The notes under the pieces: model-generated
What the model was told of the DNA's origin: nothing
Seen by the model: the letters and a program-made list of their open reading frames with translations, nothing else
Databases searched by the model: none
Position numbers and translations under genes: made by a program
In this document: positions 2,092 to 26,615 of the stretch, in pieces
How the letters are laid out: each line of letters opens with the position of its first letter
Position numbering within the stretch: position 1 is the first letter of the stretch
Virus record (IMG/VR): IMGVR_UViG_3300009964_000029
Source: a virus
DNA: 27,181 nucleotides
Strand: one strand, 5' to 3'

Positions 2092-2131
2092 TTGAGTGTC
2101 CTTTCAGTTTGTTTTTTTGTTTGATATTAAT

Positions 2132-2160
2132 ATTATAGCATAGTGTAGTGATGATGTCCA
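2132..2160 (-). promoter_or_regulatory. early promoter copy 1 (TGGACA-17-TATAAT with TGn extended -10) plus conserved leader AAAGGACACTCAA
   Basis: -35 rc of tgtcca 2155-2160, -10 rc of attata 2132-2137; ~66-bp unit near-identical to copies at 4388-4453, 24944-24990, 26548-26596. Confidence 0.65.
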
Positions 2161-2196
2161 ATATTACGCTGAGAGAGAAAATTATTAGTGGCCAGT

Positions 2197-2418
2197 TTAT
2201 GACACGTCCTTTTCCGGTGTTTTAAGGGCTTTTTTCAGCTGCTTTCGCAGCCATTTAGCGGTTGGACGGTCGATGATCATGCTGTTACGGTGATTCGTGC
2301 ACGAATCATATATAAACTCGTTCAGATACAGGTGCTCGCCGTCCATACTGGTAGACAGGTGTATGCGAGCGATGTCATCGACTTCGTGCATGTCGCTGAT
2401 TGGTGTAAACGGTTTCAT
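2197..2418 (-). CDS. small protein (73 aa), D-x5-W-L-x3-L family paralog
   Basis: MKP... IIDRPTAKWLRKQLKK; ATGA overlap with upstream gene. Confidence 0.55.
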   Translation of the reverse strand: MKPFTPISDMHEVDDIARIHLSTSMDGEHLYLNEFIYDSCTNHRNSMIIDRPTAKWLRKQLKKALKTPEKDVS

Positions 2419-2663
2419 CGTTCTGTCGCCTCGCCTTCAAGCGCACTGTTTTTGATTGTGTCTACACTATGCTGGAGCTTGTCAGACAGCCATTCGGCGT
2501 CATCAACAGATAGCATGAGATTCGTTTCAAGCATGTTGTACGGAGTATTTATAATAATCTTGACGTACTTATCAAACGTGCCGATAGCTATGCTACTGGC
2601 TCCAGGCTGGTTGGGTGGGGTATAACGGTAGTCGCTGTATTCCTCATGTTTTGTCTTACTCAT
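2415..2663 (-). CDS. small protein (82 aa), D-x5-W-L-x3-L family paralog
   Basis: LMLSVDDAEWLSDKLQH; ATGA overlaps both neighbours. Confidence 0.55.
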   Translation of the reverse strand: MSKTKHEEYSDYRYTPPNQPGASSIAIGTFDKYVKIIINTPYNMLETNLMLSVDDAEWLSDKLQHSVDTIKNSALEGEATER

Positions 2664-2857
2664 TTCGTGTTTTCCTTTTCGGTGTTTTGAAGCGTTTCGA
2701 TCAGCCAGCGCAAGCTGTCGCGGTCGAGGATAAACGTGTTCTGCATGGTCCCGCGACCGTTTTCAAAGGTGAGGATAGTGTTCTCACCGTCGATTTCTAC
2801 GTACAGTTCTGTGCAAAAGTCGTCTATTTGCAGACCGTCAAGCAGTTTAGGTTTCAT
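2660..2857 (-). CDS. small protein (65 aa), D-x5-W-L-x3-L family paralog
   Basis: SD AAAGGATAGAATC-ATG; MKP... FILDRDSLRWLIETLQN. Confidence 0.55.
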   Translation of the reverse strand: MKPKLLDGLQIDDFCTELYVEIDGENTILTFENGRGTMQNTFILDRDSLRWLIETLQNTEKENTK

Positions 2858-2880
2858 GATTCTATCCTTTTTCTTTGCTA

Positions 2881-3327
2881 TTAAAAGTCGGGTTCACCGA
2901 ACTCACTATTGTTTTGCGGTGCTGCCCACGTGTCATCAGACTGTGACCACGACTGCTGCACGGACGTCGGCTGTGAGGGCTGCGAGGATGTGGGCTGCGT
3001 GTTTTTAGGCAGTATCCCTACCGCGGTAGCCCTACAGCGCAGTGCAGTGGCCTCATGGCCGTCCCGAGCCGTATACCAGCGTTGCTGCAACGTCCCAGTT
3101 ATGAGGAGCTTTGACCCTTTTTCTGCGGCTTGGATTTGGGCGGCCGTGTAATCCGCTGAGGCTTCTACGTCAATCCACATCGTGCCCTGGTCCACCCAAT
3201 TATTAGACTTATCAAAGTAGCCTTGGCTGACCGCGACCAGGATTGACGTGACGCTCCCGCCGCTGTTAAAATGGCGTGTTTCCGGGTCCCGCCTGGCGTT
3301 ACCGGTAAACGTAACTTGTACACTCAT
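2881..3327 (-). CDS. ssb: single-stranded DNA-binding protein (SSB)
   Basis: OB-fold N-terminus VTFTGNARRDPETRHFNSGGSVTSILVAVSQ resembles bacterial SSB; Q/S/P-rich linker; acidic C-terminal tip SEFGEPDF (DIPF-like). Confidence 0.8.
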   Translation of the reverse strand: MSVQVTFTGNARRDPETRHFNSGGSVTSILVAVSQGYFDKSNNWVDQGTMWIDVEASADYTAAQIQAAEKGSKLLITGTLQQRWYTARDGHEATALRCRATAVGILPKNTQPTSSQPSQPTSVQQSWSQSDDTWAAPQNNSEFGEPDF

Positions 3328-3470
3328 TTCGTGTCCTTCCTTTCATTGTTTTTCTGTTCCAGCTGGCGGCGTATATAGGCTTCCAACCGGCCGTTAACGT
3401 ATTTGTATACGAGGCGTGTTGTGCGGCCTGTATACCTACGTTTTTTGTAGGTTTCTATGAGAACTGTCAT
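3324..3470 (-). CDS. small highly basic protein (48 aa; missed by track)
   Basis: SD GGAGGTGGACGA-ATG at 3470; MTVLIETYKKRRYTGRTTRLVYKYVNGRLEAYIRRQLEQKNNERKDTK; ATGA overlap with ssb start. Confidence 0.4.
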   Translation of the reverse strand: MTVLIETYKKRRYTGRTTRLVYKYVNGRLEAYIRRQLEQKNNERKDTK

Positions 3471-3531
3471 TCGTCCACCTCCTTGAACCCGTAGCCCAGC
3501 AGGTCCTGCTGTCCGGTAAACGTTGCTTTAT

Positions 3532-3876
3532 TCATGAGAGGTCCCTTCCATACTCGTCTTGCATTTTGTTAATGTCCTGCTGGGTAACGTTGCGCTCGTC
3601 AGCGATTTTGAGACGTGCGTACCGTGTAGAGATTCCAAGCGTTTGGGCTATCTCTTCGGCTGTCAGTTTGTATTTTTCTTTGAAGTAGACGAGTTGGGCG
3701 AAACGGTGGAGTTTGTGGACGTCTTCGGGGTACACGTTCGGGTCGTCGCGTTTCATGACCCGGCGGAAAATATGCGGGTCGTTATTCGGGACGTATTTAA
3801 CGAAATAGTAATACGGTACGTTTGGTGTGCGGAGCGGGTTGGTGATGACCGCGCTTGCGGCTTTCTTTTTAATCAT
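3532..3876 (-). CDS. HTH DNA-binding protein (114 aa), possible early/middle transcription regulator
   Basis: SD GAAAGGAAAACATC-ATG; C-terminal HTH LTAEEIAQTLGISTRYARLKI. Confidence 0.5.
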   Translation of the reverse strand: MIKKKAASAVITNPLRTPNVPYYYFVKYVPNNDPHIFRRVMKRDDPNVYPEDVHKLHRFAQLVYFKEKYKLTAEEIAQTLGISTRYARLKIADERNVTQQDINKMQDEYGRDLS

Positions 3877-3943: not shown

Positions 3944-4366
3944 TTAGTCTTCGTCCTCTTCTTCGTCGTCTTCGTCTGTTATGTAACGGTACGTGCAGTA
4001 TTCAGGCCCGCCGTTCGCTTCCTGATACGCTCTGATGAGCGTGTCGAGGTCGAGGTCGAGGTCGTACAGGTAGTGGTCACGGAGGAGGACAAGGTCGTTG
4101 TAGTCGATTTCTTCTGGTTCTTCGCCTGGCTTGGCGTTGTCGATAGCGTTCTGATTGGCTATGAACCGACGGCGGATACCGTTCGCAATATAGTATGTAG
4201 TCCCGTTGATGCGGGCGAATGCGTCGAGCATGCTTTCAAAGTCGTCTATGCGCTCGTAGCTGCTGACTGTTTCGTCTGCGAGTTCTTCGACGGGGATATC
4301 CCATGATTCGACTGGGATATGAGAGCTGGTTACCCTCTTTGTGAAGTGGATATGTGTGACTGTCAT
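3944..4366 (-). CDS. highly acidic protein (140 aa) with poly-D/E tail; DNA-mimic / anti-restriction candidate
   Basis: true start ATG 4366 after conserved leader GGAAAGGACACAATAAA (track start 4432 is a TTG inside promoter copy 2); ...DLDLDLDTLIRAYQEANGGPEYCTYRYITDEDDEEEDED. Confidence 0.55.
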   Translation of the reverse strand: MTVTHIHFTKRVTSSHIPVESWDIPVEELADETVSSYERIDDFESMLDAFARINGTTYYIANGIRRRFIANQNAIDNAKPGEEPEEIDYNDLVLLRDHYLYDLDLDLDTLIRAYQEANGGPEYCTYRYITDEDDEEEDED

Positions 4367-4402
4367 TTTATTGTGTCCTTTCCTTTTTTGTTTGATATTA
4401 TT

Positions 4403-4431
4403 ATTATAGCATAGTGTAGTGATGATGTCCA
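4403..4431 (-). promoter_or_regulatory. early promoter copy 2
   Basis: -10 4403-4408, -35 4426-4431, 17-bp spacer; drives acidic protein gene. Confidence 0.65.
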
Positions 4432-4456
4432 ATATTACGCTGAGAGAGAAAACTGT

Positions 4457-4791: not shown

Positions 4792-4840
4792 AGGCTGTGT
4801 TCTTGTCCTTTCGCGCACAGCCTTTATTTTTTGTCTTTTT
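4792..4840 (+). terminator. intrinsic terminator oriented for + strand: AGGCTGTG-16 nt-CACAGCCT then TTATTTTTTGTCTTTTT
   Basis: perfect 8-bp stem plus T-run on + strand; antisense to early operon. Confidence 0.5.
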
Positions 4841-5372
4841 CCGTGTTCTCCTCGCTGTCTTTCTGACAGTATTCGATGATACGGCTTATCGCGGCGTTAA
4901 CATTTTTGATGTTGTGACAGTTAGCGGTGATCTTCCCGCACAAGTAGTCCATTTGGTGGCTGTTGTTTAGTGTCACGTCGTTCAACAGTTCATTGATATA
5001 CTCGATGTGGGCTGTCTTTTCCAGCCTGGCCTGGTATTGGGCGAGTATCATACGTGCGGCCTGCTGGACCGGGGTACCGTCCAACGGGATAGGCTTACCA
5101 TCAACTTTCATACCTAGTTCGTGTAACGGGCGGCCGGAGTACAAATATCCGAGTATAGCCGTATACAACCATACGTCTACCGTAGTTATTTGTTCTGGCT
5201 CCCAGCCGGCTTCTATCGCTACGATTGGGTTAGCGAAACCTCCGGCATACAATTCAACGAGCTTATCATACCCGTTCTGTCGGGCGGCTGACAGTAAACG
5301 GTAGTTATATTCACGTTCTGGACCGTCCCACGTATTCAAAAACAGTATTGAGGGGCTTGTAAAACCAGCCAT
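4824..5372 (-). CDS. hypothetical protein (182 aa)
   Basis: ATG 5372 preceded by AAGGCGGTCTTA (this SD-like sequence is also the 3' acceptor arm of the tRNA-like element); no recognisable domain. Confidence 0.6.
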   Translation of the reverse strand: MAGFTSPSILFLNTWDGPEREYNYRLLSAARQNGYDKLVELYAGGFANPIVAIEAGWEPEQITTVDVWLYTAILGYLYSGRPLHELGMKVDGKPIPLDGTPVQQAARMILAQYQARLEKTAHIEYINELLNDVTLNNSHQMDYLCGKITANCHNIKNVNAAISRIIEYCQKDSEENTEKDKK

Positions 5373-5376
5373 TAAG

Positions 5377-5448
5377 ACCGCCTTCCAAGACTTGCACTTG
5401 GGACCTCTACCATAGCTGGTAGCGCTCTATCTATTGAGCTAAAGGCGG
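5377..5448 (-). tRNA. tRNA-like cloverleaf, non-canonical (6-nt anticodon loop AGCTAT containing CTA); possible degenerate tRNA or mRNA-processing element
   Basis: minus-strand fold: acceptor CCGCCTT/AAGGCGG 7 bp perfect, U8 A9, D stem GCTC/GAGC, D loop AATAGATA, anticodon stem CTACC/GGTAG, variable AGGTC, T stem CCAAG/CTTGG, T loop TGCAAGT, discriminator T, no encoded CCA. Deviations: C1, no G19, no U33, G55. Confidence 0.4.
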
Positions 5449-5456
5449 AAACATCT

Positions 5457-5855
5457 TTAGAATAACACATTCTGCTGCTCATTGCAACCCTCCTGCAATT
5501 CACGTACATTTTCGCCCGTCTCACGATGCCACCACTGGGCAAACAGCGAACGGTGGCACAATTCTTTACGAATATCATCAAAACATAAGAGCACAAGCCG
5601 GTCGCACCCAGCAGAATCACAAATCTGCTGCAAATCTAAACGGACCCGCTCAACACCATAATCATTAAGCATACTCACATAATGCTGAGTAAACTCTTCA
5701 TCAGTACCTTCTAAAAACCAACGGCCGGGAGTCAACAAAAAACACTTATACTCCAAATCGTACGGCAAACGATAACGGGGAGCACTAAACGTAATCCGCA
5801 CAGGGACACCCTCAGAAGGCTTAAAATCACGATACCGATTCGTAAACAATAACAT
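5457..5855 (-). CDS. DUF488 family protein (YeaO-like)
   Basis: RYRDFKPSEG...APRY...DLEYK..LTP...LVLLCFDDIRKELCHRSLFAQWW resembles DUF488/YeaO; ATG 5855 with AAAGGA 9 nt upstream (track uses alternative TTG 5873 with GGGTGG SD). Confidence 0.55.
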   Translation of the reverse strand: MLLFTNRYRDFKPSEGVPVRITFSAPRYRLPYDLEYKCFLLTPGRWFLEGTDEEFTQHYVSMLNDYGVERVRLDLQQICDSAGCDRLVLLCFDDIRKELCHRSLFAQWWHRETGENVRELQEGCNEQQNVLF

Positions 5856-5899
5856 AACAATATATCCTTTCAACTATAACCACCCGACTTTTTAGGTGA

Positions 5900-5945
5900 T
5901 ATATTTATATTATAGTACACGGAGTAGACAAAAAACACAAGGAAA
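5900..5945 (-). promoter_or_regulatory. candidate leftward promoter for DUF488 operon (-10 TATAAT = rc of 5909-5914; weak -35)
   Basis: TATAAT on minus strand 41 nt upstream of TTG 5873; no good -35. Confidence 0.25.
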
Positions 5946-6024
5946 CCCAACCCACACAACAACCATATAACAAAAACCTATAACACAACACTCAACAACT
6001 AACAAAGAACAAGGAGAATAGAGT

Positions 6025-6108
6025 ATGTGGTTACCCTCTTCCCGCTCACCACCCAACTTAACGCTCTTTAACCCTCTTAATAAATTTCAACTTATCCACT
6101 TCACTTGA
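6025..6108 (+). CDS. 27-codon ORF with ideal SD (AAGGAG, 8-nt spacer) after CA-rich leader; possible micropeptide/leader peptide
   Basis: MWLPSSRSPPNLTLFNPLNKFQLIHFT; lies in 877-bp intergenic region. Confidence 0.2.
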   Translation: MWLPSSRSPPNLTLFNPLNKFQLIHFT

Positions 6109-6508
6109 TTCTTTTAGTTTGAGCTTGAGAGATACTTACCCCTTACTACACAACTAACATAGTCATGTCTTAAGGGGCAAAGTCTAAACGAAGGAACAAT
6201 AAGCAAGAACAAAACGGTAATCTTCACCGTCATCTCCTAGCCGTCGCCGTCGATTAAACTTAGATAGTGTCATTCTCTGTTAACTATCACAGCGGTAAAC
6301 TTGTGAGGGCACTTCCCAACAAATATGACCTTTGTATCGGAGCGTGTCGGCCAGCCCGTTTATGCCACGCCCAGCCTCACAATCTGTTAACGTTTCACCC
6401 TCTAACGGTGTTCACCCCGGGTTAGGGGGGGCAAGAATTTTATACAGCCCATCAACTTGCACATCAGGCTGTGTCGTATTATATGAGTAATTGTATCAAG
6501 CAATTATT

Positions 6509-6521
6509 ATAATTCAATATA
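6509..6521. repeat. 13-bp direct repeat ATAATTCAATATA copy 1 (candidate operator)
   Basis: exact 13-mer also at 6634-6646; the two flank the divergent promoter region. Confidence 0.5.
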
Positions 6522-6594
6522 ATTCTAGGTATTAAATTATGTATTAGTTATAGTGTAGCACACCCCCGTGACGAAAACAAACGAGACACACGAT

Positions 6595-6623
6595 TTGCAT
6601 TGTAGACAGAGTCGTGCTATACT
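6595..6623 (+). promoter_or_regulatory. rightward promoter TTGCAT-17-TATACT with TGn
   Basis: ttgcat 6595-6600, 17-bp spacer, tatact 6618-6623, tgc at 6615-6617; faces late genes. Confidence 0.45.
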
Positions 6624-6633
6624 GAATACTGTC

Positions 6634-6646
6634 ATAATTCAATATA
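6634..6646. repeat. 13-bp direct repeat ATAATTCAATATA copy 2
   Basis: exact match to 6509-6521, just downstream of predicted rightward TSS. Confidence 0.5.
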
Positions 6647-6674
6647 GTACTATGCACCCCGCCTGGAAGCCAAC

Positions 6675-6691
6675 CCCCGGACGGGGTTTTT
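6675..6691 (+). terminator. weak hairpin CCCC-GGAC-GGGG plus TTTTT between rightward promoter and first late gene (possible attenuator)
   Basis: 4-bp GC stem then 5 T. Confidence 0.3.
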
Positions 6692-6719
6692 AATAACCCC
6701 ATTTATCGAGTAAACGTGA

Positions 6720-6732
6720 TATAATATATAAT
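6720..6732 (+). promoter_or_regulatory. TATAAT hexamers (6720-6725, 6727-6732) abutting ATG 6733; leaderless-mRNA configuration
   Basis: no SD before ATG 6733; -10 ends 7 nt before start codon. Confidence 0.35.
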
Positions 6733-6930
6733 ATGGAACAAGAAACATACCTCACAGTCAAACAATTCGCCCAACTCATAAACACCCCCAAATACAACAT
6801 CTATAACTGGATATACGCAGGCAAACTACCTTACATCACCCTCACGGGCACCCACGCCATCAGAATCCCACTCAACAAAGCAATAACCCACCACCCCGCC
6901 ACCAAGCCAACAGAACAGGAAACACGATGA
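6733..6930 (+). CDS. HTH_17 (excisionase/MerR-like) DNA-binding protein, 65 aa; possible DNA-recognition part of small terminase
   Basis: LTVKQFAQLINTPKYNIYNWIYAGKLPYITLTGTHAIRIP matches HTH_17 pattern; ATGA overlap with next gene. Confidence 0.55.
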   Translation: MEQETYLTVKQFAQLINTPKYNIYNWIYAGKLPYITLTGTHAIRIPLNKAITHHPATKPTEQETR

Positions 6931-7319
6931 CAGAAAACCCTAAACCCCACCGCGACCCCAAAGGCCGCTTCCTCAAAAACACGCCCCCACCCAACCCCAC
7001 CGGAACAGGCGGATTCACCGACCACCCAGAACACCGCAACAACGGCCGATGGGACCACCACGCCAGCTACACATACAACCTCAACCGCTACAAAAACATG
7101 ACCAACAGCGAACTCGCCCAAGAAATCCAAAACATCGACAACCTCACCCAAGCAGAACAAACAGCCCTCCGCCTCATCATCGCATCAAAAAAAGAAAACG
7201 AACTCGCCTTCCGCAAATACCAAGACATCGCCGACCGAACAGAAGGACGCGCCCCCCAAACCATCAACCAAAACATCACCCAAACAGAACCCCCCCAAAT
7301 CAACATCACCTTCAAATAA
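6927..7319 (+). CDS. putative terminase small subunit
   Basis: N-terminal DPKGRFLKN...NPTGTGG resembles GRF.KGN..G TerS motif; coiled-coil segment; sits directly upstream of TerL. Confidence 0.45.
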   Translation: MTENPKPHRDPKGRFLKNTPPPNPTGTGGFTDHPEHRNNGRWDHHASYTYNLNRYKNMTNSELAQEIQNIDNLTQAEQTALRLIIASKKENELAFRKYQDIADRTEGRAPQTINQNITQTEPPQINITFK

Positions 7320-7341
7320 CCAACCGTAGCAGACGAAAAAC

Positions 7342-8616
7342 ATGGACTATATAATCCCCCAAGAATACGCCCCCCTCTTCTACTACACCCACCAACCATA
7401 CCCCGACTACCGATACTACGACTTCAGCGGAGGACGCTCCAGCGGCAAAAGCACCACCGTAGCACTCGCCATAACTCTCCAAGCAACCCAACAAAAAACC
7501 CGCATACTCTGCTGCCGCGAATACCAAAACAGCATCAAAGACAGCGTCAAAGCCCTCATAGAACAAATCATCACCGACAACCAACTCCCCGGATACACCA
7601 TACTCAACGACACAATCACCCACCAAAACGGCAGCCAATTCATCTTCAAAGGCCTCCACGACAACACCGAAGCCACCATAAAAAGCCTACACAACATCAA
7701 CATCTGCTGGGTCGAAGAAGCCCAAACCATCAGCAAACAAAGCCTCGACATACTCCTCCCCACCATCAGAACCCCCCACAGCATCATCATCTACACCAGA
7801 AACCCCCTCACCCCAACCGACGAAATCACCCTCCGACACGTCACCAACCCCACCCCAGAAACCGCAAAACGCACCTACCACAAACACGTCACCTACCGAA
7901 TACTCGAACGAGCAGGAATCCTCCCCACAGAAATCAAACACCAAATCAAAGAAGCCAAAAACACACCCGACTACAACCACATCTGGGAAGGCCAACCCAC
8001 ACAAAACCTCACCAACCAACTCATCACCTGGACCGAACTCACCCAAACCGAACACAACCCCCAACAAACAGGCGGCACAACCCTCGGCATAGACGTAGCC
8101 CGATACGGAAACGACCGCACCGCCATCGCCACCATACAAGGCAACACCCTAACAACCATCACCACCTGGCAACACGCCAGCATCACACAATCAGCACAAC
8201 GCATAAAAACCATATGCGGCACCCTCCCCAACCTCACCAGCATCAAAATCGACGACACCGGCGTCGGAGGCGGACTCACCGACATACTCACCGACATGCA
8301 CCTACCAGTCCAACCCATCAACTTCGGCAGCAAACCCACCCAACCCAAAAAATACGACACCACCATCAGCGAAATGTGGTTCACCTTCAAACAAAAACTC
8401 CCCACCATACGCATAAACCCCGAACTCACAACTAAGAACGAACTCTACACAGAACTCACCAACCGAGAATGGACCATCGACAACCAAAACCGTAGAGCCA
8501 TACAAAAAAAACGAGACTACAAACAGCAACAGCAAACAGGCAGCCCAGACCTCGCCGACGCAGTACTACTCGCATATTACCAACCCAAACGATTACATTG
8601 GAACGTTAGCGTATAA
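7342..8616 (+). CDS. terL: terminase large subunit (PBSX/XtmB-like, headful type)
   Basis: Walker A YYDFSGGRSSGKST as in PBSX-family TerL; size and position; extreme T/P/N/Q/H-rich composition. Confidence 0.85.
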   Translation: MDYIIPQEYAPLFYYTHQPYPDYRYYDFSGGRSSGKSTTVALAITLQATQQKTRILCCREYQNSIKDSVKALIEQIITDNQLPGYTILNDTITHQNGSQFIFKGLHDNTEATIKSLHNINICWVEEAQTISKQSLDILLPTIRTPHSIIIYTRNPLTPTDEITLRHVTNPTPETAKRTYHKHVTYRILERAGILPTEIKHQIKEAKNTPDYNHIWEGQPTQNLTNQLITWTELTQTEHNPQQTGGTTLGIDVARYGNDRTAIATIQGNTLTTITTWQHASITQSAQRIKTICGTLPNLTSIKIDDTGVGGGLTDILTDMHLPVQPINFGSKPTQPKKYDTTISEMWFTFKQKLPTIRINPELTTKNELYTELTNREWTIDNQNRRAIQKKRDYKQQQQTGSPDLADAVLLAYYQPKRLHWNVSV

Positions 8617-8656
8617 TAAACAGTAACAACCATAACAGCAGAACAAGGAACCTTTT

Positions 8657-10816: not shown

Positions 10817-11001
10817 TAATCCGCTGCTCTAAGTGTGGCCGGTTCCTTGGTGAAAACCACCAGCCCACCATCATTATGCTTAAATGTCCTAACTGCCACT
10901 CATACAGCGAATACAAACTCAAACCCCTCACCACTCATGGTATACTAGAGTTTAAGCCCACCATGAGCGTTGTAAACGCGGGCCACGCAGAAACACACTA
11001 A
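10813..11001 (+). CDS. Com-like Cys4 zinc-ribbon protein (62 aa)
   Basis: ATG 10813 overlaps portal stop (ATGA); MIIRCSKCGRFLGENHQPTIIMLKCPNCHSY aligns with Mu Com IRCKHCNKLL...IEIRCPRCKRHI (C-x2-C-x17-C-x2-C). Confidence 0.5.
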   Translation: MIIRCSKCGRFLGENHQPTIIMLKCPNCHSYSEYKLKPLTTHGILEFKPTMSVVNAGHAETH

Positions 11002-11011
11002 AGGAGAGAAC

Positions 11012-12844: not shown

Positions 12845-12861
12845 AACAGAATATTAACTGT

Positions 12862-12920
12862 GAGCGGGTATAGCCTTGCGTATCGAAAATACGGACGAGG
12901 GCTGCCCGCTCCTTTTTGTT
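12862..12920 (+). terminator. rho-independent terminator after capsid gene
   Basis: GAGCGGG...CCCGCTC outer stem with inner CGTAT-CGAAA-ATACG hairpin, followed by CTTTTTGTT. Confidence 0.6.
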
Positions 12921-12952
12921 AAACAGGAATAGTAGACAGAACGAGGAATGTA

Positions 12953-14278: not shown

Positions 14279-14281
14279 TAA

Positions 14282-15363: not shown

Positions 15364-15388
15364 ACAACAGGAATGAAAGGAGCTTCTT

Positions 15389-15733: not shown

Positions 15734-15752
15734 AATCACGAGAGGGGCGCGT

Positions 15753-16118
15753 ATGGCTGAGTATCATAATGCTCTTAGTGACCTGTCAGCTGAGGACATA
15801 CGCAAACTCCGTGAATTCAAAAAAGCCCGCCAGCCTGAAACACAAAGTACGGTTGGCGGGTTTTCCACGCAATGGGAGCAATTGATAGCGGAGTTCGCTT
15901 CCTATTACGGGTGGCTGGGTGTTCGTGACGTGCTCGAAGACAGGCTTCCGGTGGAAACGTTTTACGGTTTATTGGACGCTGGGCGTGTCCAGTATAACCG
16001 GCGTCGAGGCGAACAGCTCGTAGACTTGTATAACAGTATCGCGTGCGCATTGGGGGAGAACGGGGACAGGGAGATACAAAAACTCGTGAAACGGTTAACA
16101 ACAATGGGAAAAGGATAG
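15753..16118 (+). CDS. second tail chaperone (gpT-like) with own start codon
   Basis: ATG after GAGAGGGG; upstream frame closed by TGA 15714-15716 leaving only 17 nt of overlap for any frameshift. Confidence 0.45.
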   Translation: MAEYHNALSDLSAEDIRKLREFKKARQPETQSTVGGFSTQWEQLIAEFASYYGWLGVRDVLEDRLPVETFYGLLDAGRVQYNRRRGEQLVDLYNSIACALGENGDREIQKLVKRLTTMGKG

Positions 16119-16122
16119 GCTC

Positions 16123-18993: not shown

Positions 18994-19009
18994 ACAGGAG
19001 GCAACAGAT

Positions 19010-19900
19010 ATGGCACCGGTTTTAGATTACGCGAATGACATTCATATAACAGTGAACGGTTTCCCCCTAACCGGCATCAATGACGGTGTAGAGTGGCATG
19101 TGACGTTAAGCGACGTAACAGGTTTGTACGACGGGCTTGGTACGAGTCTGACGTCTACGCAGCGTGTTTTGGCTGACGGCGTGTTTTACAACAAGCCGTT
19201 TTATGGGGAACGGCAGATTAGTATAACGGGGCATATCTTTGGTGGCTGCTGGAATAGTATATTGTCGAGTTGGGAGCATTTCAAAGCTAAACTGCTTAAA
19301 GGTGTGCAACCGTTCACCGCAACATTGATGGGAGTAACCCGCGTGTGTGACGTGTATCAAGGTTCTACTGCGCCCGCAATTCTCCCGTTGGGTGCACAAA
19401 TGGCGAAATTCACGGTGAAATTGGCGTGCACCTCGCCGTTCCTGTACGGTGGTGACGTGTACACTGCGGAAATAGGGTTGCCCTCTAGTAGTGGTGGGCG
19501 GACGTACCCTTATATGTTCGACATGGAGCAGGGGGTAGCAGCAAACGTGTGGTGTTGGCCAGAAACAGTAACAAACGGGAGTATCATAATAAACTATAAC
19601 GGTACCGCTGAAGCCCCGGTACAGTTGACTATCAGTGGCCCGGTGGTGAACCCTACTGTTACGCATACCCCGTCCGGACGGGTGTTGAAGTTCGGTTTAG
19701 CGTTGGGTGCGGGGCATACGCTTACGGTGGATACCGGTGAACGGTCAATATACGTAGATGGTAGTCCGTTGCGTGGTCATGTTCTGCGTCGCGAGTTTCC
19801 CGTGTTGACGCCTAATGCGGTGAATCAGTTACAGTTTAGTGCGGACGAATATAATCAGGACGCGCGTTTACATGCTACCTGGAGGGAGGCGTATCTGTGA
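19010..19900 (+). CDS. distal tail protein (Dit)
   Basis: synteny immediately after TMP; 296 aa. Confidence 0.55.
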   Translation: MAPVLDYANDIHITVNGFPLTGINDGVEWHVTLSDVTGLYDGLGTSLTSTQRVLADGVFYNKPFYGERQISITGHIFGGCWNSILSSWEHFKAKLLKGVQPFTATLMGVTRVCDVYQGSTAPAILPLGAQMAKFTVKLACTSPFLYGGDVYTAEIGLPSSSGGRTYPYMFDMEQGVAANVWCWPETVTNGSIIINYNGTAEAPVQLTISGPVVNPTVTHTPSGRVLKFGLALGAGHTLTVDTGERSIYVDGSPLRGHVLRREFPVLTPNAVNQLQFSADEYNQDARLHATWREAYL

Positions 19901-20970
19901 GCCGGACTGGGTTTGATGACACGGGACTGCATTGGGTTGCAGTAGAGCTTATTAGTGGGGATATTGTGTGTGAGGTTCCTGTGTTGCAGGTGAACCTGTT
20001 GGAGTACTATATGCAAGAGTCGAGCACAGTGCAGGCGAACCTGCCGTACGATACGGCACCACGGCATTGGGTAGATTGGACTGTCCCGTACACGCATGCG
20101 CTGCTACTGTTACAGGACAGTGTGTGTGTGTGGGGTGGGATAATCGTCAAACGGTTACGCGAGGCAGCCCATAATTATACTGCTTTAACGTTGTGTACGG
20201 TTGAAGAGTATTTGAACAGGGTTTATGTGACGGATTGCGAGTTCCAGAACACACAGCAGACTGTTATAGCGCAGCGTCTTGTAGATTCCGCGATACTGGG
20301 CAACCGTTTTAGCTTCAAATATGACATACAACCGTCACAGTATTATCGCGACCGGTCTTACTACGAGAAAGACGATAAAACCGTTTTTGAACGCTTGAAA
20401 GAATTGGCCGGTGTGATTAACGGTATCGAATATTATTGTGACTGGCAGCCGAAAAATGTTGACGGCTGGCAGCCATGTTTGCATGTAGCCGATTTTATTG
20501 GCAGTAGGACGCCGGTAACGAGTTTTGATGAGTCCACGTTAAGCAGTTTCAGTGTGTTAGAGGATTACAGTAACGGGTACGGTGGGAACAGGGTGTTGGC
20601 GTCGAGTACGGCAGAAGGTGATATACGCCCGGAATCATCGTGGTATGAGAGTAGTAACGTGTCGCGGCCTGTGGTGGAACGGAAGTTTCAACCATCGACG
20701 AATATTACGAGCATAGAAACGTTGAACGAGCATGCTCAAGCTGAGTTACATGAGATTGAGAACGGGACAACAATTATCAGTTTCGAATCGAGTCTGAGCA
20801 GTATGCCGCGTATCGGAAAAGATTGGCAGCTTGGTGACACGATACGGTGGATTGTGTCGGATTCCAGCTATCCGGACTATACGGAAGGTTTGGCGCGTAT
20901 AATAGGGTATAAGCTCAGTTTTAATGACGGGTGGAAATTCACCCCCACGTTACAGAAAGTAGCAGCATGA
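19897..20970 (+). CDS. tail-associated protein (Tal/gp27-like N-terminal domain)
   Basis: synteny; ATGA overlap with Dit. Confidence 0.5.
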   Translation: MSRTGFDDTGLHWVAVELISGDIVCEVPVLQVNLLEYYMQESSTVQANLPYDTAPRHWVDWTVPYTHALLLLQDSVCVWGGIIVKRLREAAHNYTALTLCTVEEYLNRVYVTDCEFQNTQQTVIAQRLVDSAILGNRFSFKYDIQPSQYYRDRSYYEKDDKTVFERLKELAGVINGIEYYCDWQPKNVDGWQPCLHVADFIGSRTPVTSFDESTLSSFSVLEDYSNGYGGNRVLASSTAEGDIRPESSWYESSNVSRPVVERKFQPSTNITSIETLNEHAQAELHEIENGTTIISFESSLSSMPRIGKDWQLGDTIRWIVSDSSYPDYTEGLARIIGYKLSFNDGWKFTPTLQKVAA

Positions 20971-21479
20971 CGATACAACGGAAAAGCCTTACCGGTTTGG
21001 ACGCGACAGCCCGCAAGTTCGCTCAATTGGAGTCCGAGTTACGTGGTTTGGCTCCTAGTGTGTCGGAAAGTATTAAGCCGATTGTTCCACGGTTTAAGAC
21101 TATCCAGCAGCGGATTCCGAGTTTTTTGTTAACAGGCCCTCCTGGGTGGGCGGCTACGGCGGTAAAATGCCCTAATATCAGTGGGTACAACAAGGTTATT
21201 GTGTCGGTGTCGTGGAGTTTCAAAAACACGAACGCGCTTGTTGGCGTGGAATCAGGATTGTTTATTAATGATAGACTGGTTACGTATGGTGATGGTAACA
21301 TGTCTGGCTATTGGGGGGACACGGGCGTGAACGTGGGTTTCTACATGTCGGGCTGCCGGTGTTTAGACCAGTTTACAGTTAAGGCTTTGATTAATCAGGG
21401 TGAACAGAATCAGGTTCCGGCTACTGGTTTCACTGCTGATTATATTTTTATTTATTTCAACGATTCGAGGAGTATTTAA
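20967..21479 (+). CDS. baseplate/tail fibre-associated protein (170 aa)
   Basis: ATG 20967 overlapping previous stop (ATGA). Confidence 0.4.
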   Translation: MTIQRKSLTGLDATARKFAQLESELRGLAPSVSESIKPIVPRFKTIQQRIPSFLLTGPPGWAATAVKCPNISGYNKVIVSVSWSFKNTNALVGVESGLFINDRLVTYGDGNMSGYWGDTGVNVGFYMSGCRCLDQFTVKALINQGEQNQVPATGFTADYIFIYFNDSRSI

Positions 21480-22442
21480 ATGGGTATTATTGTGCACCCT
21501 TTGACAGCGGTTAACGGTTCACCGGTTTACAGTGCTGACGATTACAGGCATGTGGTCAACAGTCTACAGGTGGTGAGTGATGGTACGCCGTTCGGGGGAG
21601 TGAGCGGTGTCCGCTATACGGGTACGGATCCGCTCGTGTCGGTGGACGGTACCACGGTTACTGTGCAGCCTCATACGGGGTTTTATGGTGGCTGGTCGAC
21701 TGCTGGCGTGTACACGTACGCTGTGGAGTCTTCCGAGAGTGTGGAGTTGGAAAGCGCGAACAGCAGTTACAAGGTTTATGTGCGGATTGATGACCCTTCG
21801 CAGTCTCATGGTGATACTCCCCGCGGCCAGCTGGCCGTAGTGAACGCTAACACAGCGGGCAGTAACATTAATGGCGTTGTCCTCGCTACAGTGGGTGGCG
21901 GTGACACCAACGAGACAGCTGTGCGTGTGGATATGTCTGGGAAACTGCACGCCCCGTCGCTCGCAGTGCTGGACAGTGTAAGCCCGATAGACGGCACATT
22001 AGCTTCCGTGTGGACAACGAACGCGGAGTATACGCGGGAGTACGGGCAGTGGGTGCAGACGAATAGTCGTATGCTGATCACTGCTAAATGGGATGACCCT
22101 CTGTTAGTGGAGGTTGCTCTACAGCCGATTAACAATAGTATTAGTGTTGGTTCGTATAATGTTAACGGGGCTACTCATTTGGCAACATTGCATTTCCAGT
22201 GGAACGTGTTAGGTTCGTCTTCGCATTCCCCGTGGGAGAGCACAGTCTTCGCAACAATAAGAGGATGGAAAGCCACCAACGAAGCATGGGGAGCTGTATA
22301 TGATAACACGAATGATGATATCGTCTCGCTGCGCTGCTTCGTGAGCGGGACTGATATCGCGCTCCGCAGTCGCGGCTCTTACAGTTTGAATAGTAACGCT
22401 TGGTATCAGGGTAGTGTCATATTCCCGTGTAAGAGAATTTGA
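21480..22442 (+). CDS. tail fibre / receptor-binding protein candidate
   Basis: beta-rich, G/S/T/N-rich 320-aa protein at end of tail module. Confidence 0.45.
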   Translation: MGIIVHPLTAVNGSPVYSADDYRHVVNSLQVVSDGTPFGGVSGVRYTGTDPLVSVDGTTVTVQPHTGFYGGWSTAGVYTYAVESSESVELESANSSYKVYVRIDDPSQSHGDTPRGQLAVVNANTAGSNINGVVLATVGGGDTNETAVRVDMSGKLHAPSLAVLDSVSPIDGTLASVWTTNAEYTREYGQWVQTNSRMLITAKWDDPLLVEVALQPINNSISVGSYNVNGATHLATLHFQWNVLGSSSHSPWESTVFATIRGWKATNEAWGAVYDNTNDDIVSLRCFVSGTDIALRSRGSYSLNSNAWYQGSVIFPCKRI

Positions 22443-22447
22443 TACAT

Positions 22448-22894
22448 ATGTTTAGTCATGTTCAACTGGATACAACGATTATCGTAGCAATCATCACGGG
22501 TGTAATATCATTAACGGTGTCTATCATAGGTTTCAAGGTCAAGGAGAAATCTGACGAGGCGGAAGCGTTTAAGAGTATGCAAGAGACGATAGAGGGCTTG
22601 CACCGGGATATTAAGGAACAGGACCGTCGTATAGGGCATTTGTCTCACCTGGTCATCAGTGAGCAGGAGCAGCGCAGGCAGGCGGAAGCCAACCTGCTGG
22701 AAGAGAAACAGAAAACCTTTGAGAATACGGCCTATTTGAGGGCTTTAGGCCATTGGTTCGAGACCTTGTGTGAAGTACTGGACCCGGCGTGGCTGCAAGC
22801 GCACCCTAAACCGCATTTGCCTAATACTATCCGTCCGGAGATTAGCGCCTTAACGGTGGGAACAGATTTAGAAATCAATCACGACGAACAGTAA
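22448..22894 (+). CDS. N-terminally membrane-anchored coiled-coil protein (possible lysis accessory)
   Basis: TM TTIIVAIITGVISLTVSIIGF then charged coiled coil; ATG 22448 more likely than track TTG 22439. Confidence 0.45.
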   Translation: MFSHVQLDTTIIVAIITGVISLTVSIIGFKVKEKSDEAEAFKSMQETIEGLHRDIKEQDRRIGHLSHLVISEQEQRRQAEANLLEEKQKTFENTAYLRALGHWFETLCEVLDPAWLQAHPKPHLPNTIRPEISALTVGTDLEINHDEQ

Positions 22895-22904
22895 GGAGAC
22901 CCTT

Positions 22905-23828
22905 GTGAAGGATTGGGATAAACTGGAGCCGGACGAATACCGGCTCATCAACCGGCATTACACGAAAGGCCGGCAAGGCCACAGGATAGACAAGATTATC
23001 CTGCACCACAACGCGGCGAACCTGAGTATTGGGGGATGCTGGAGTGTGTGGCAGTCGCGGCCAGCAAGCGCGCAGTATCAGGTGGACGTAGCCGGCCGTA
23101 TCGGCCAACTGGTGCACGACGCTGACACGTCGTGGAATGCGGGCAATTGGAACGCGAATGTCACGAGCATTGCTATTGAACATGCGGACATGACTACCAA
23201 CCCCTGGAGCATTTCGGGAGCGACATTAGATAATGGGGCGCACCTGGTGGCAGCATTGTGCAAAGCGTACAAGCTGGGACGGCCAATATGGCTGAGGAAC
23301 GTGTATCCGCACAGCTATTTCAGTGCGACCGCTTGTCCTGCTAGTATTCGTGATTCGCAGCGCGAGGAGTATATGCAGCGTGCTCAGGCGTATTACGACC
23401 AGATGACCGTCAACAGGATGGAGACTGTTATCCGCCCGGCTATCAACCGGGTCATCAATCGGGTGGTTAATACGGTCGCGTCGAGCGTGCCGCAGATTAC
23501 GGTAGACGGGTATGCGGGGCCGGCAACGATTAAACGCCTCCAGCAGCTGCTGGGCACGCCCCAAGACGGTATCGTGTCAAGTCAGCCCGTTGTCAATAAG
23601 CGGTATCTGCCTAACGCCACAAGCGGCTGGCAGTGGGTTGGCCGGGCGTCGGGTAGTACGATGGTACGCCGTTTGCAGGAGCGGCTGGGTGTCACTGTGG
23701 ACGGTCTTATAGGCCGTGACACTATCAAAGCGTTGCAGCGTCGGCTGGGTGTGACTGATGACGGTATCGCGGGGGCAGCAACCTTCCGCGCTTTGCAGAC
23801 CAATCTCAACCGTAACAGACTGTGGTAA
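22905..23828 (+). CDS. endolysin: N-acetylmuramoyl-L-alanine amidase (amidase_2/PGRP) with three C-terminal PG_binding_1-like repeats
   Basis: GTG after AAGGAGA; ...IILHHNAANLSIGGCWSVW...ATACPASI; repeats DGYAGPATIKRLQQLLG / DGLIGRDTIKALQRRLG / DGIAGAATFRALQ. Confidence 0.8.
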   Translation: MKDWDKLEPDEYRLINRHYTKGRQGHRIDKIILHHNAANLSIGGCWSVWQSRPASAQYQVDVAGRIGQLVHDADTSWNAGNWNANVTSIAIEHADMTTNPWSISGATLDNGAHLVAALCKAYKLGRPIWLRNVYPHSYFSATACPASIRDSQREEYMQRAQAYYDQMTVNRMETVIRPAINRVINRVVNTVASSVPQITVDGYAGPATIKRLQQLLGTPQDGIVSSQPVVNKRYLPNATSGWQWVGRASGSTMVRRLQERLGVTVDGLIGRDTIKALQRRLGVTDDGIAGAATFRALQTNLNRNRLW

Positions 23829-23850
23829 AACACATTAAAAAACACATTAA
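23827..23850 (+). repeat. exact 12-bp tandem duplication AAAACACATTAA x2 between endolysin stop and holin SD
   Basis: 23827-23838 = 23839-23850. Confidence 0.6.
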
Positions 23851-23868
23851 CAAATTAAGGAGATAATT

Positions 23869-24165
23869 ATGACAGACACAAACACTACACCGGGGACCGC
23901 GCTCACGGTAGATGAGGGAGTGCAGGAGACGTCCGCTCCTGTCTCTCATGTCGCTGATACGGACGCAGCTAAGCAGTATACGCCGGTTTTTAATGATACG
24001 GTGCGTACGGTGATTTATATTCTTGGCCTGTCCGCTTCGGTGGTTGGTCTTGGGTTTATGACTTTCGGCCGGGCTGATATTGGCGGGTTTATTAGCACCG
24101 CCGCGGGCTTTATTGCTGCTGGTTTCGGTGTTGCTTATAATCCGCTGCGCATGTCCGAACGGTAA
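23869..24165 (+). CDS. holin (2 TM)
   Basis: SD AAGGAGATAATT-ATG; VIYILGLSASVVGLGFMTF and GFISTAAGFIAAGFGVAY TM segments. Confidence 0.65.
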   Translation: MTDTNTTPGTALTVDEGVQETSAPVSHVADTDAAKQYTPVFNDTVRTVIYILGLSASVVGLGFMTFGRADIGGFISTAAGFIAAGFGVAYNPLRMSER

Positions 24166-24211: not shown

Positions 24212-24232
24212 ATGTTACCTATAACATTACCT

Positions 24233-24277
24233 CCGTCCCTGGATTTCCTAGGGCGGGGGCTTTTTGTGTTTTAGTGG
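24233..24277 (+). terminator. terminator for rightward late transcripts after holin
   Basis: imperfect stem CCCTGG-ATTTC-CTAGGG then GGGGGCTTTTTGTGTTTT. Confidence 0.45.
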
Positions 24278-24924: not shown

Positions 24925-24958
24925 TTGAGTGTCCTTTCTTTTTTTGTTTGATATTATT

Positions 24959-24987
24959 ATTATAGCATAGTGTAGTGATGATGTCCA
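24959..24987 (-). promoter_or_regulatory. early promoter copy 3
   Basis: -10 24959-24964, -35 24982-24987; directly downstream of terminator 25003-25035; drives 24271-24924. Confidence 0.65.
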
Positions 24988-25002
24988 ATATTATGCTAAC
25001 AG

Positions 25003-25035
25003 AATAAAATAAAAGGGGAGGACAGTTGCCTCCCC
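25003..25035 (-). terminator. rho-independent terminator after YqaJ gene
   Basis: GGGGAGG-ACAGTTG-CCTCCCC perfect 7-bp stem; U-run TTTTATTTTATT on minus strand. Confidence 0.65.
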
Positions 25036-25051
25036 ATTATCATACTAAATT

Positions 25052-25933
25052 CTACCAGTTTTCGGGTTCTACCGGAACAAGATTAGTAATCAAGTCCGAA
25101 TATCCGAGAACTTCCTGTACTTTAGTGTAATGGTCTTTAATCTCGTTGACGATATCGTCACGTGGTATCGTCAGATAAACGTGGCTGAGGTTCAGGTTCC
25201 TGATACGGTCATCGTAGAACGAGAAATACAGTGTTTCTAAATCATCGTTGACAGCGAAGTATTGGAGGACCTGCGGCTTATACTTGTCCGGAACGAAATC
25301 ATATTCGCGTGTAGCTGTCCGTTTGTCGTGGAATAACGTATTAAACAGCATGTCAGTTTTGTTCTTTTTCCAGATGAGAAACGGGAGCACGTACATGAGA
25401 TGGTTGGCCGTGCCGAGGCTCTTGCATTCAATAGCCCATAACGGTTTGTCGCCTGTCTCAGTAACGTCTGGGCTGACAGCTATGCGCGGCTCGTCGTCCC
25501 TGGCCCACATTGTCGGCTCGTAGTCCACTGTGTCTTCACTGATTCCCAGTTTTTGGACGGTGATTCCTGCGTTAACGTTTTCTAGCCGGTGACCGCGTTC
25601 TGCGGGATTCTCGTACTCTGCGTCTGGCGTGGCGTAGAGTTCTGCGAGGTACTGCCAGAAACCTACGGGCGTTTTCAACCGCTGGTTATCGAGGTCGGCG
25701 AGGTCGGCTTTTTTCTTGTATTCTTCGGCTTTTTTCTTGTATTCTTCGGCCTTTTCTGTTGTCTTGGCTTTCTCAGCGGCGGTGAGGGCTTTAGCTCTCA
25801 TATCAAGGATACGACTAACATTGGTTTGAGCATACTCTTCAAGAGCGGTCGAGCCGATTTTACTGCCTGTGATGAGACCTCGGCGGGCCTCCAACCATTC
25901 GTCAGTGTTCTGCTGTACATTAATTGTGTGCAT
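25052..25933 (-). CDS. YqaJ-like viral recombinase exonuclease (lambda Exo fold)
   Basis: N-terminal NTDEWLEARRGLITGSKIGS motif; overlaps ERF gene end by 14 nt; contains 21-bp tandem repeat (KKAEEYK x2). Confidence 0.7.
   Translation of the reverse strand: MHTINVQQNTDEWLEARRGLITGSKIGSTALEEYAQTNVSRILDMRAKALTAAEKAKTTEKAEEYKKKAEEYKKKADLADLDNQRLKTPVGFWQYLAELYATPDAEYENPAERGHRLENVNAGITVQKLGISEDTVDYEPTMWARDDEPRIAVSPDVTETGDKPLWAIECKSLGTANHLMYVLPFLIWKKNKTDMLFNTLFHDKRTATREYDFVPDKYKPQVLQYFAVNDDLETLYFSFYDDRIRNLNLSHVYLTIPRDDIVNEIKDHYTKVQEVLGYSDLITNLVPVEPENW
25706..25747. repeat. 21-bp tandem repeat x2 inside YqaJ gene
   Basis: ggcttttttcttgtattcttc x2. Confidence 0.7.
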
Positions 25934-26528
25934 TGGTGATTTCCTTTCGAATCAGTTCAACAGCTGACACGGGGATATCGGTAGGTTTGCTGATATCGTG
26001 GCCTGCGTATTTACGGGCGATGGTTTTCAGGTCAGCGTTATACTCTTTGGCAAGGTCGATGAGGCTGATAGCAACGTCCTGTGTGATTGTCTGCGTGCGA
26101 TTGTCAGTGAACTGTGTGGAATAGGTTGTGCTTGCTTTGCCGTCGTCGTCCTTGTCTGGGTAGATTCCGAGGGCGGCGTAGAGGCTGTAACGGCGGGCGT
26201 AGGTGACTGCGCTTCCGTTGGCTTGGCTGTCGGCTGTGTAGTAGAACGGGTATTCAGATACGAGTATTTCATCGTTGGCGTTGAAGATGTAGGTGCAGAC
26301 TTTAGCAATGGTCTTATTGCTGTCGGTTTCTACGAGTTCGACGGATTGGCGGAACATGATTCCGTGTTGTGCGAAAACCTGTTTGACGGTTTTGCAGAGT
26401 GTTCCGAGTGACAGGTATTTGTATGTGCGGTTCGCGCCGATTTTTGCCGCTTCGTCGGTGAGCATGTTCGGCATATCGACGAGCGCATTAATGTACGCTT
26501 GGTTGAGAGGCAGCTGTTGTTCAGCCAT
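25920..26528 (-). CDS. ERF-family single-strand annealing protein
   Basis: GANRTYKYLSLGTLCK...GSAVTYARRYSLYAALGIYPDKDDDG aligns with P22 Erf KYKYRSCEDIL...SSYARKYCLNGLFGIDDAKDAD; ATG after conserved leader of promoter copy 4. Confidence 0.75.
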   Translation of the reverse strand: MAEQQLPLNQAYINALVDMPNMLTDEAAKIGANRTYKYLSLGTLCKTVKQVFAQHGIMFRQSVELVETDSNKTIAKVCTYIFNANDEILVSEYPFYYTADSQANGSAVTYARRYSLYAALGIYPDKDDDGKASTTYSTQFTDNRTQTITQDVAISLIDLAKEYNADLKTIARKYAGHDISKPTDIPVSAVELIRKEITNAHN

Positions 26529-26562
26529 TCGAGTGTCCTTTCCTTTTTTGGTTGATATTAAT

Positions 26563-26591
26563 ATTATACCATAGTGTGGTAATGATGTCCA
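26563..26591 (-). promoter_or_regulatory. early promoter copy 4
   Basis: -10 26563-26568 (TGGTATAAT on minus), -35 26586-26591; drives ERF/YqaJ operon. Confidence 0.6.
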
Positions 26592-26615
26592 ATTAATTAT
26601 GCCGAGAGCATAAAA

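Follow-up and report, generated by a model that had tools for sequence, protein, structure and literature searches.

The DNA examined here, IMG/VR virus record IMGVR_UViG_3300009964_000029, is a stretch of 27,181 nucleotides (nt), referred to in its full length as the window. Its positions 1-127 are an exact repeat of positions 27055-27181, and given this 127-nt terminal duplication the window therefore represents one circularly closed genome, the complete genome of a siphovirus of 27,054 bp. The late arm, on the plus strand from 6733 to 24165, carries the structural and lysis genes in the order excisionase-type helix-turn-helix (HTH) protein, small and large terminase, portal-MuF fusion, protease-capsid fusion, tail genes, tape measure, Amidase_2 endolysin and holin-like protein. 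The early arm lies on the minus strand and runs from ~5855 down through position 1 and on from 27054 to 24271, the gene for RusA (388 to 26984, 152 amino acids (aa)) being split by the window ends. Within the early arm lie four co-oriented minus-strand copies of a ~90-nt unit, numbered P1 to P4 (Table 1). A first-pass annotation had described these units as copies of one promoter-plus-leader cassette driving early genes, and all four were recovered in place on that strand.

The core of the unit is a 30-mer, TTGGACATCATCACTACACTATGCTATAAT, that is exact at 2132-2161, 4403-4432 and 24959-24988 and carries three mismatches at 26563-26592, in P4, the copy already singled out for core substitutions; P4 also has a 2-nt TA insertion upstream of the -35. 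The core had no match elsewhere in the window and none in 100 shuffles. A repeat search returned the copies as the top direct-repeat family of the window (80 nt, 79-100% identity), and in a promoter scan every copy displayed TGGACA, a 17-nt spacer and TGn-TATAAT, that is, 11/12 consensus positions plus the TG, a combination found at these four sites only in the whole window. P1 and P2 had been taken to be identical over about 66 bp. They are in fact nearly so (68/69), with an exact run of 51 nt, one T/A mismatch 2 bases after the -10 and a further 17 identical positions, and P2 and P3 share an exact run of 54 nt. Each unit occupies the entire interval from the preceding stop codon (for P3, from a terminator) to the next ATG, 87-96 nt in all, and P1, P2 and P4 start within a few bases of that stop codon. 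Upstream of the -35 every copy contains an A/T-rich stretch that is UP-like by sequence and in most copies reads AATAATTTTAT(T/G)CTC. When sigma-70/sigma-A promoters are defined by a -35 near TTGACA and a -10 near TATAAT separated by 17 +/- 1 nt, all four copies qualify, and the extended -10 (TGn) and the A/T-rich UP-like region are present as well.

Transcription is predicted to start at an A seven bases past the -10, which gives a leader of 28-34 nt that is 75-82% A+C. In all four copies, as had been proposed, this leader ends in a common Shine-Dalgarno sequence (SD), GAAAGGA, 7-9 nt before the ATG; GAAAGGA is also the usual SD of the genome. Folding of the leaders revealed no structure beyond that of shuffled controls, with energies of -0.8 to -1.7 kcal/mol for three copies (z ~0). 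Rfam and tRNA scans of the window were empty, and no riboswitch or small RNA accounts for the leader. For two open reading frames (ORFs), 1928-2161 and 3944-4432, the start codon is the TTG of the -35 region; these ORFs, whose products start MDIITTLCYN..., are artefacts, in agreement with the earlier view of them.

Table 1. Coordinates of the cassettes, their leaders and the associated genes and signals in the window
Feature	Position	Strand	Details
Cassette P1	2092-2187	-	-35 2155-2160; -10 2132-2137; predicted +1 ~2125; nhmmer E 3e-25
P1 leader		-	34 nt, with extra CAAACT; SD 2099-2105; ATG 2091
Cassette P2	4367-4457	-	-35 TGGACA 4426-4431; TG; -10 TATAAT 4403-4408; predicted +1 ~4396; nhmmer 4457-4369, E 3e-23
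P2 leader		-	30 nt; SD GAAAGGA 4376-4382; ATG 4366
Cassette P3	24925-25014	-	-35 24982-24987; -10 24959-24964; predicted +1 ~24952; nhmmer E 8e-24
P3 leader		-	SD 24932-24938; ATG 24924
Cassette P4 (divergent copy)	26529-26620	-	-35 26586-26591; -10 26563-26568; predicted +1 ~26556; nhmmer E 2e-22
P4 leader		-	SD 26536-26542; ATG 26528
Gene after P1	1921-2091	-	56-aa hydrophobic ORFan; heads a run of small ORFs ending in RusA
Gene after P2	3944-4366	-	140-aa acidic ORFan; isoelectric point 4.15; 35 D+E vs 11 K+R
Further genes of the P2 group		-	Putative HTH protein, 48-aa ORF, SSB (2881-3327), small ORFans
114-aa protein	3532-3876	-	Sub-threshold HTH match (HTH_11, E 0.003, below cut-off); paralogue of 26616-26969
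117-aa paralogue of the 114-aa protein	26616-26969	-	Ends 24 nt upstream of the P4 -35
P4 unit	25052-26528	-	ERF single-strand annealing protein, 25920-26528 (PF04404, 4e-14)
P4 unit, second gene	25052-25933	-	YqaJ-type exonuclease (PF09588, 2e-8)
Intrinsic terminator hairpin	25015-25035	-	GGGGAGGCAACTGTCCTCCCC, then a T-run merging into the P3 cassette; ends the ERF-exonuclease unit
P3 gene	24271-24924	-	217-aa fusion ORF
F1a/F1b junction in the P3 gene	24576-24624 (45 nt)	-	Own SD AAAGGAG

An ERF search identified close relatives of the phage (87-97% ERF identity) as independent metagenomic contigs of 27-29 kb. For comparison of the early regions we used L006, L009, L011, L012 and L013 from this search, together with L004 and L005, which matched the core pattern. 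Assemblies made independently from other samples (L004-L013) contain this cassette too, and five related metagenomic genomes carry it in 2-5 copies. By profile search the window has 4 copies, L006 at least 5, L009 5, L012 3, and L011 2 plus a degenerate remnant, so that the copy-number variants suspected by the first-pass annotation do exist. All copies are co-oriented with the early genes and none lies in the structural region. A copy always precedes ERF and another the acidic ORFan, the position after the exonuclease is filled only where a gene follows the exonuclease, and the P1 position is filled only in the window, L006 and L009; in L012 the 56-aa gene is present without a promoter.

Beyond these relatives the cassette was not encountered. 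The metagenome search with the core, as originally recommended, yielded contigs L004 and L005, and its exact and degenerate forms gave no match in IMG/VR. Bacterial genomes searched with the core pattern lacked the cassette, and a search of deposited phages with the cassette alone returned only chance A/T-rich matches (E >= 0.09). BlindUri1, one of the nearest deposited genomes, has no cassette copy and no comparable intergenic repeat family. The distant relatives L001 and L014, whose ERF is 40-47% identical, are likewise without this cassette. They possess a different repeated promoter family, CGGCGTGT(C)TTGC.C ... TATA(C/G)T, with copies at 1545-1593, 3127-3175 and 7112-7160 in L001 and at 9931-9979 and 15459-15507 in L014. 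Behind each of the three L001 copies stands a C/A-rich leader with GAAAGGA at its end. L014 has a copy of this family directly upstream of ERF; the site before ERF in L001, at 4950-5025, is promoter-like but separate. Given this different promoter family in a like placement, the architecture is therefore conserved though the sequence has been replaced.

A conservation profile was built over 19 distinct cassette copies. Invariant or nearly so were the TG, T-12, A-11 and T-7, the G, the A and the final A of the -35, the TCATC that follows the -35, and most of ATTAATATCAA around the +1, while the spacer centre varies in 5-7 of the 19 copies. Substitutions spare the bases contacted by RNA polymerase, and the variant hexamers (TTGACA, TAGACA and TGGATA; TATGAT and TAAAAT) all keep a plausible promoter. 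Judged by its sequence, this pattern fits a promoter, and together with the 11/12 match plus TG and the placement between stop codon and ATG it upholds the promoter-plus-leader description. L004 and L005 had given the idea that the cassette is more conserved than the flanking genes; this was contradicted by four complete relatives, in which identity between genomes is 77-82% for the cassette at orthologous sites vs 84-92% for the flanking coding sequence.

Copies within the window differ at 0-1 of 56 positions, as do the four copies of L006, and orthologous copies in different genomes differ at a mean of 7.6. The spacer variant is specific to the genome, being TCATCACTACACTATGC in three copies of the window and TCATCTACACTACATGC in four copies of L006. 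On these counts, apparent concerted evolution of the copies is clear in two genomes, the window and L006.

The cassettes also coincide with the places at which the early regions differ in gene content. The terminator at 25015-25035, P3, the ORFan behind it and a downstream hairpin form one block in the window, L005, L006 and L009, the terminator being kept together with the post-exonuclease cassette in each of these three relatives, and L011-L013 lack the terminator-P3-gene block, the junction being clean. Just before ERF, two cassettes in L006 enclose three additional genes. In L009 and L012, an extra cassette with the CxxC ORFan F1a is found between a 101-aa gene and the acidic gene, ahead of the acidic-gene cassette; in the window F1a stands instead behind the post-exonuclease cassette, and among the relatives it occupies three different genome positions. 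Of 68 synteny-block ends, 20 fall within 40 nt of a cassette, with cassettes making up ~8% of the region. Short-read contigs break inside the cassette in L004, L010 and L015-17, and the L010 contig has cassettes at both ends, an indirect hint that mini-circles or deletions may arise between copies. By these comparisons, cassettes flank gene insertions and deletions as well as the translocation of one ORFan. The 2.3-kb deletion that had been anticipated between P1 and P2 is found in no relative; the indels bounded by cassettes are others.

Based on the data presented above, our preferred interpretation, to which we assign a probability of about 0.75, is that the four repeats are copies of one early host-type promoter-plus-leader cassette that doubles as recombination homology. 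The promoter-plus-leader half is favored because the geometry is close to consensus and because the copies are placed constantly between stop codon and ATG, co-oriented with the genes. From the anatomy, the conservation pattern, the copy-number variation and the cassette-bounded rearrangements we infer promoter activity, start sites, strength and timing, as well as the mechanism of recombination, as follows. On infection, the host housekeeping RNA polymerase (sigma-70/sigma-A) would start at the four predicted +1 positions (Table 1) and read leftward, which would result in high and immediate expression of the acidic ORFan/SSB group, the run of small ORFans ending in RusA, ERF with the exonuclease, and the terminal ORFan. 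The first-pass annotation had the cassettes driving separate transcription units. This is supported for P3, upstream of which lies the only terminator that adjoins a cassette, and not for P1, P2 and P4, which have none; with the ERF-exonuclease unit alone closed by a terminator, these three would be internal promoters of a read-through early region and not the start of insulated units. It is more likely that P2, P1 and P4 are nested, boosting promoters within one long leftward early region. Since the copies extend over the whole gap and share at least 50 identical bases, they would therefore serve as portable homology. Recombination between them would homogenise the copies within a genome and would insert, delete and relocate promoter-plus-ORFan units, and the phage's own ERF/exonuclease/RusA system may drive it. 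The homology-linker role is possibly a secondary consequence, perhaps one that has been selected for.

Several observations weigh against this interpretation. The -35 is TGGACA and not TTGACA, and an actinobacterial sigma-A, if that is the host's, may give the -35 a different weight. An upstream terminator is missing from three of the four copies, leaving their units not insulated. Within-genome similarity is weak in L009, L011 and L012. The breakpoint enrichment counts events that are not independent, and the count is inflated in that BLAST blocks naturally end and restart at repeats. Additionally, copies that had recently been duplicated, or swapped between co-infecting phages, could yield such a pattern with no need for intragenomic conversion.

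A more far-reaching version, which we put forward tentatively and consider rather unlikely, is a capture-and-shuffle system resembling an integron. Here, the cassette would be a landing pad for ERF/YqaJ/RusA, and circles bounded by cassettes would carry ORFans from one fixed slot to another, or from one co-infecting genome to another, ready to be expressed on arrival. These exchanges would homogenise the copies, and the segments not used by the polymerase would be an operator for the duplicated HTH-like proteins, by which all slots are switched together.

Alternatively, the repeats may be promoters and nothing else, the copies being alike through selection for one optimal sequence at every site, or through recent duplication; that they coincide with junctions would then be incidental, the intergenic gaps being tolerated breakpoints. 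Indels in phage early regions are usually intergenic anyway, and the weak homogenisation in three of the genomes and the non-independence of the breakpoint counts, both noted above, speak for this reading. However, selection does not explain why the functionally free centre of the spacer is identical within a genome and different between genomes, nor does this alternative explain the same ORFan behind a cassette at three different positions, and we regard it as unlikely.

It is also conceivable that the promoter is combined with an operator, in which case TCATC, ATTAATATCAA and a TAATATT that occurs twice ~31 bp apart would be sites for a regulator, and the paralogous putative HTH proteins at 3532-3876 and 26616-26969 would switch the early promoters together. 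The near-invariance of these segments in the 19 copies is in keeping with this, as is the conservation of both paralogues, which share an HTH-like C-terminus, in every cassette-bearing genome; these HTH-like paralogues were not found in the cassette-free L001, L014 and L003, and one of them ends just upstream of P4. The two proteins are 26% identical over the C-terminal 50 aa (E 2e-6), and to call them candidate phage regulators is speculative. Their HTH assignment lies below curated thresholds, and their co-occurrence with the cassette may reflect relatedness only. Moreover, P2 and P3 do not preserve the A/T palindrome around the -10 (ATT to AAT), and promoter melting and escape would explain the A/T-rich discriminator and initial transcribed regions as well. 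We consider an operator improbable, to much the same degree as promoters alone.

The remaining candidates (promoters of a phage-encoded polymerase, a MITE, a replication origin and a packaging signal) were rejected on orientation, placement, the lack of inverted repeats at the ends and gene content. Conservation well beyond the two hexamers, as in promoters of single-subunit RNA polymerases, would suit a phage-encoded RNA polymerase or sigma factor of the T7 type, but the -35/17/TGn-10 arrangement is of near-perfect host type, no ORF beyond the structural genes is of polymerase size (293 aa at most in the early region) and the early proteins scanned contain no sigma or RNA polymerase domain, which makes this very improbable. 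Although the units are dispersed, multi-copy, ~90 nt long and variable in number among relatives, a MITE (miniature inverted-repeat transposable element) or other mobile DNA that resembles a promoter, named at the outset as the outcome that would overturn the promoter assignment, is hardly credible, given that no inverted-repeat pair was reported at the unit ends, no target-site duplication is visible, no transposase is encoded in the window, the orientation is the same in all genomes, the position is always from stop codon to SD-ATG, and the element is absent from the bacterial genomes, IMG/VR and deposited phages searched.

Promoters A1-A3 of T7 and the early promoters of T5 are strong promoters for the host polymerase. 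The virulent phage SPP1 likewise has a set of strong early promoters for host polymerase, PE1-PE5 (PMC6316719). The cassettes resemble these systems in that several strong sigma-70/sigma-A promoters stand on contiguous early polycistronic units with replication and recombination genes and small ORFans. The promoters of SPP1, T7 and T5, however, share the consensus hexamers only, whereas here a ~90-nt unit is repeated almost verbatim, including the spacer, the flanks and the 5' untranslated region (UTR).

A closer parallel is offered by the promoter-early stem-loops (PeSLs) of T4-type myoviruses (Arbiol et al. 2010, PMC2839356; Comeau et al. 2014, PMC4122927). Their definition includes a strong sigma-70-like early promoter and an SD over a full intergenic gap of ~100 bp (PMC2839356), and they have been described as homology linkers for the gain and loss of ORFans (PMC2839356, PMC4122927). 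The window cassette is similarly a composite of A/T-rich stretch, sigma-70-like promoter and SD that fills the gap from stop codon to ATG (87-96 nt vs ~100 bp), it is present in many copies of one orientation in association with ORFans, and indels and replacements between close relatives are bounded by its copies; P3 even has a terminator hairpin directly upstream. In contrast with PeSLs, there is no stem-loop in each copy, as three of the four window copies have no terminator, and the genome is that of an unrelated 27-kb siphovirus with 2-5 copies rather than a 170-kb T4-type genome with dozens. The copies do not lie in the hyperplastic region of a T4-like myovirus, the nearest relatives being Bifidobacterium siphophages, and the within-genome homogenisation documented here is not a stated feature of PeSLs. 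Because the stem-loop is not found in each copy and the phage is an unrelated small siphovirus, the window cassette, which on this comparison would work like a PeSL, should not be filed as one. The promoter units of L001, whose copies at 3127 and 7112 each stand just after a terminator hairpin, look more PeSL-like than the window cassette.

The P3 block, a promoter-gene-terminator arrangement that is present or absent between otherwise collinear genomes, also fits the definition of a moron, a correspondence that extends to P3 only. Morons, autonomous promoter-gene-terminator insertions of lambdoid and other phages, are thought to enter by illegitimate recombination with unrelated promoters, a distinction drawn by Arbiol et al. 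(PMC2839356); unlike in a moron, the P3 promoter is a cassette that is repeated elsewhere in the genome and is the apparent site of exchange. The Bifidobacterium asteroides phages BlindUri1 and BlindBasel1, the nearest deposited genomes, have the same two-arm layout and 49% aa identity in the protease-capsid fusion, but they contain neither the cassette nor a comparable intergenic repeat family.

The first genes downstream of the four cassettes belong to four unrelated BLAST families, in line with the initial description, which had also recognised the strong acidity of the protein behind P2. Searches of Pfam, PHROGs, NCBIfam and PDB with these first downstream genes and the HTH-like paralogues returned nothing above threshold, and the acidic 140-aa ORFan has no family or PDB match; of its earlier description as DNA-mimic-like, it is the acidity that was confirmed. 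The product of the P3 gene had been called a CxxC protein. This designation applies to residues 1-101 of the 217-aa ORF, which constitute the CxxC ORFan family F1a; residues 117-217 are a second ORFan family, F1b, and in relatives F1a and F1b are separate genes of ~100 aa. The junction between them resembles the leader of a second promoter type that precedes F1b in L015 (2700-2790: GTTGCAC...TATATA with a GGGAA/TTCCC hairpin), and from its sequence is probably the relic of an internal intergenic region. A fifth cassette copy as the source of the relic was rejected, the leader matching this different promoter type. The late operon and the P3 gene converge on a hairpin at 24213-24253. With CTTTTTGTGTT after it on the plus strand, this hairpin is likely to be the late-operon terminator; the minus-strand transcript from P3 would be terminated by it only weakly.

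With SPP1_Dit, TMP_3 and the protease-capsid fusion in a 27-kb genome, the phage is a small, virulent-looking siphovirus. At the nucleotide level, 25 kb of the window matched no deposited phage in a near-identity search. Nearest to the endolysin amidase (52-64%) are the amidases of Propionibacterium, Bifidobacterium and Eggerthella phages and a human faecal phage contig; among the ORF translations, in which no search aimed at spanins was made, no spanin-like gene was noticed. On these points, and with GAAAGGA as the usual SD, the putative host is likely a gut actinobacterium. Neither the core pattern nor the capsid alignment had a match in 185k bacterial genomes, and no link to a prophage or host emerged.

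Several further features of the genomes were noted. Between the divergent early and late arms, ~860 nt (5873-6732) are without convincing ORFs, a candidate origin, pac site or late-promoter region; the part at 6490-6730 is very A/T-rich, with several weaker promoter-like sites. Two genes contain exact in-frame tandem duplications, one of 2 x 30 nt at 11626-11685 (DTDKPDDKPA repeated), where the protease-capsid gene encodes its scaffold/linker part, and one of 2 x 21 nt at 25704-25745 in the exonuclease gene (a 7-aa repeat, KAEEYKK/EEYKKKA register). The tape-measure gene has a series of diverged repeats at 66-nt spacing (17740-18431) that encode W-N-G-I-K-D-T-like motifs. At ~4915-4926, compared with L009 1950-3572, the window is without ~1.6 kb present in L009 and L011, which encodes the larger part of a 472-aa DAM-like/GNAT protein and a ParB_N protein. 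The window is left with a 182-aa hybrid ORF (4824-5372), and L012 has a different deletion in the same place. L014 encodes pentapeptide-repeat proteins (10877-12062 and 15796-16284) with 15-nt periodic repeats, the paralogous copies sharing a 180-nt 5' region.

While comparing these genomes, we also noted an extreme, position-dependent strand asymmetry in base composition that is unrelated to the cassettes. It spans 5000-12500 of the window and peaks at 6800-8200, with the plus strand reaching 75-79% A+C. Third codon positions of the HTH, small terminase and large terminase genes are ~33-39% A, 50-63% C, 3-8% G and 1-3% T. Across the portal and capsid genes the bias declines, and from ~13 kb it is reversed to G/T-rich. 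The minus-strand gene at 5457-5855 has the mirror bias, and the asymmetry therefore follows position and not coding direction. The asymmetry recurs in L011 and L012 and, less strongly, in L014. One possible cause is a deamination gradient that starts at a fixed end or origin, for example the 800-nt non-coding region before the small terminase gene, and this strand bias is perhaps a more unusual feature than the promoters.

Repeated strong early promoters are ordinary in phages, and verbatim repetition combined with concerted evolution and ORFan shuffling in a 27-kb phage that encodes ERF is a modest extension of a known phenomenon, one that opens no new biological principle. In practical terms, the cassettes explain why short-read assemblies break at these sites, and the MDIITTLCYN ORFs with TTG starts should warn annotators against such artefacts. 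For an uncultivated clade of gut phages, the cassette provides a compact predicted strong promoter and 5' UTR for use in the host, as well as a testable transcription map. In the literature searched, linkers of the PeSL type are described only for large T4-like myoviruses; the present case would extend the idea of regulatory cassettes as recombination linkers to a 27-kb siphovirus with its own ERF recombinase.

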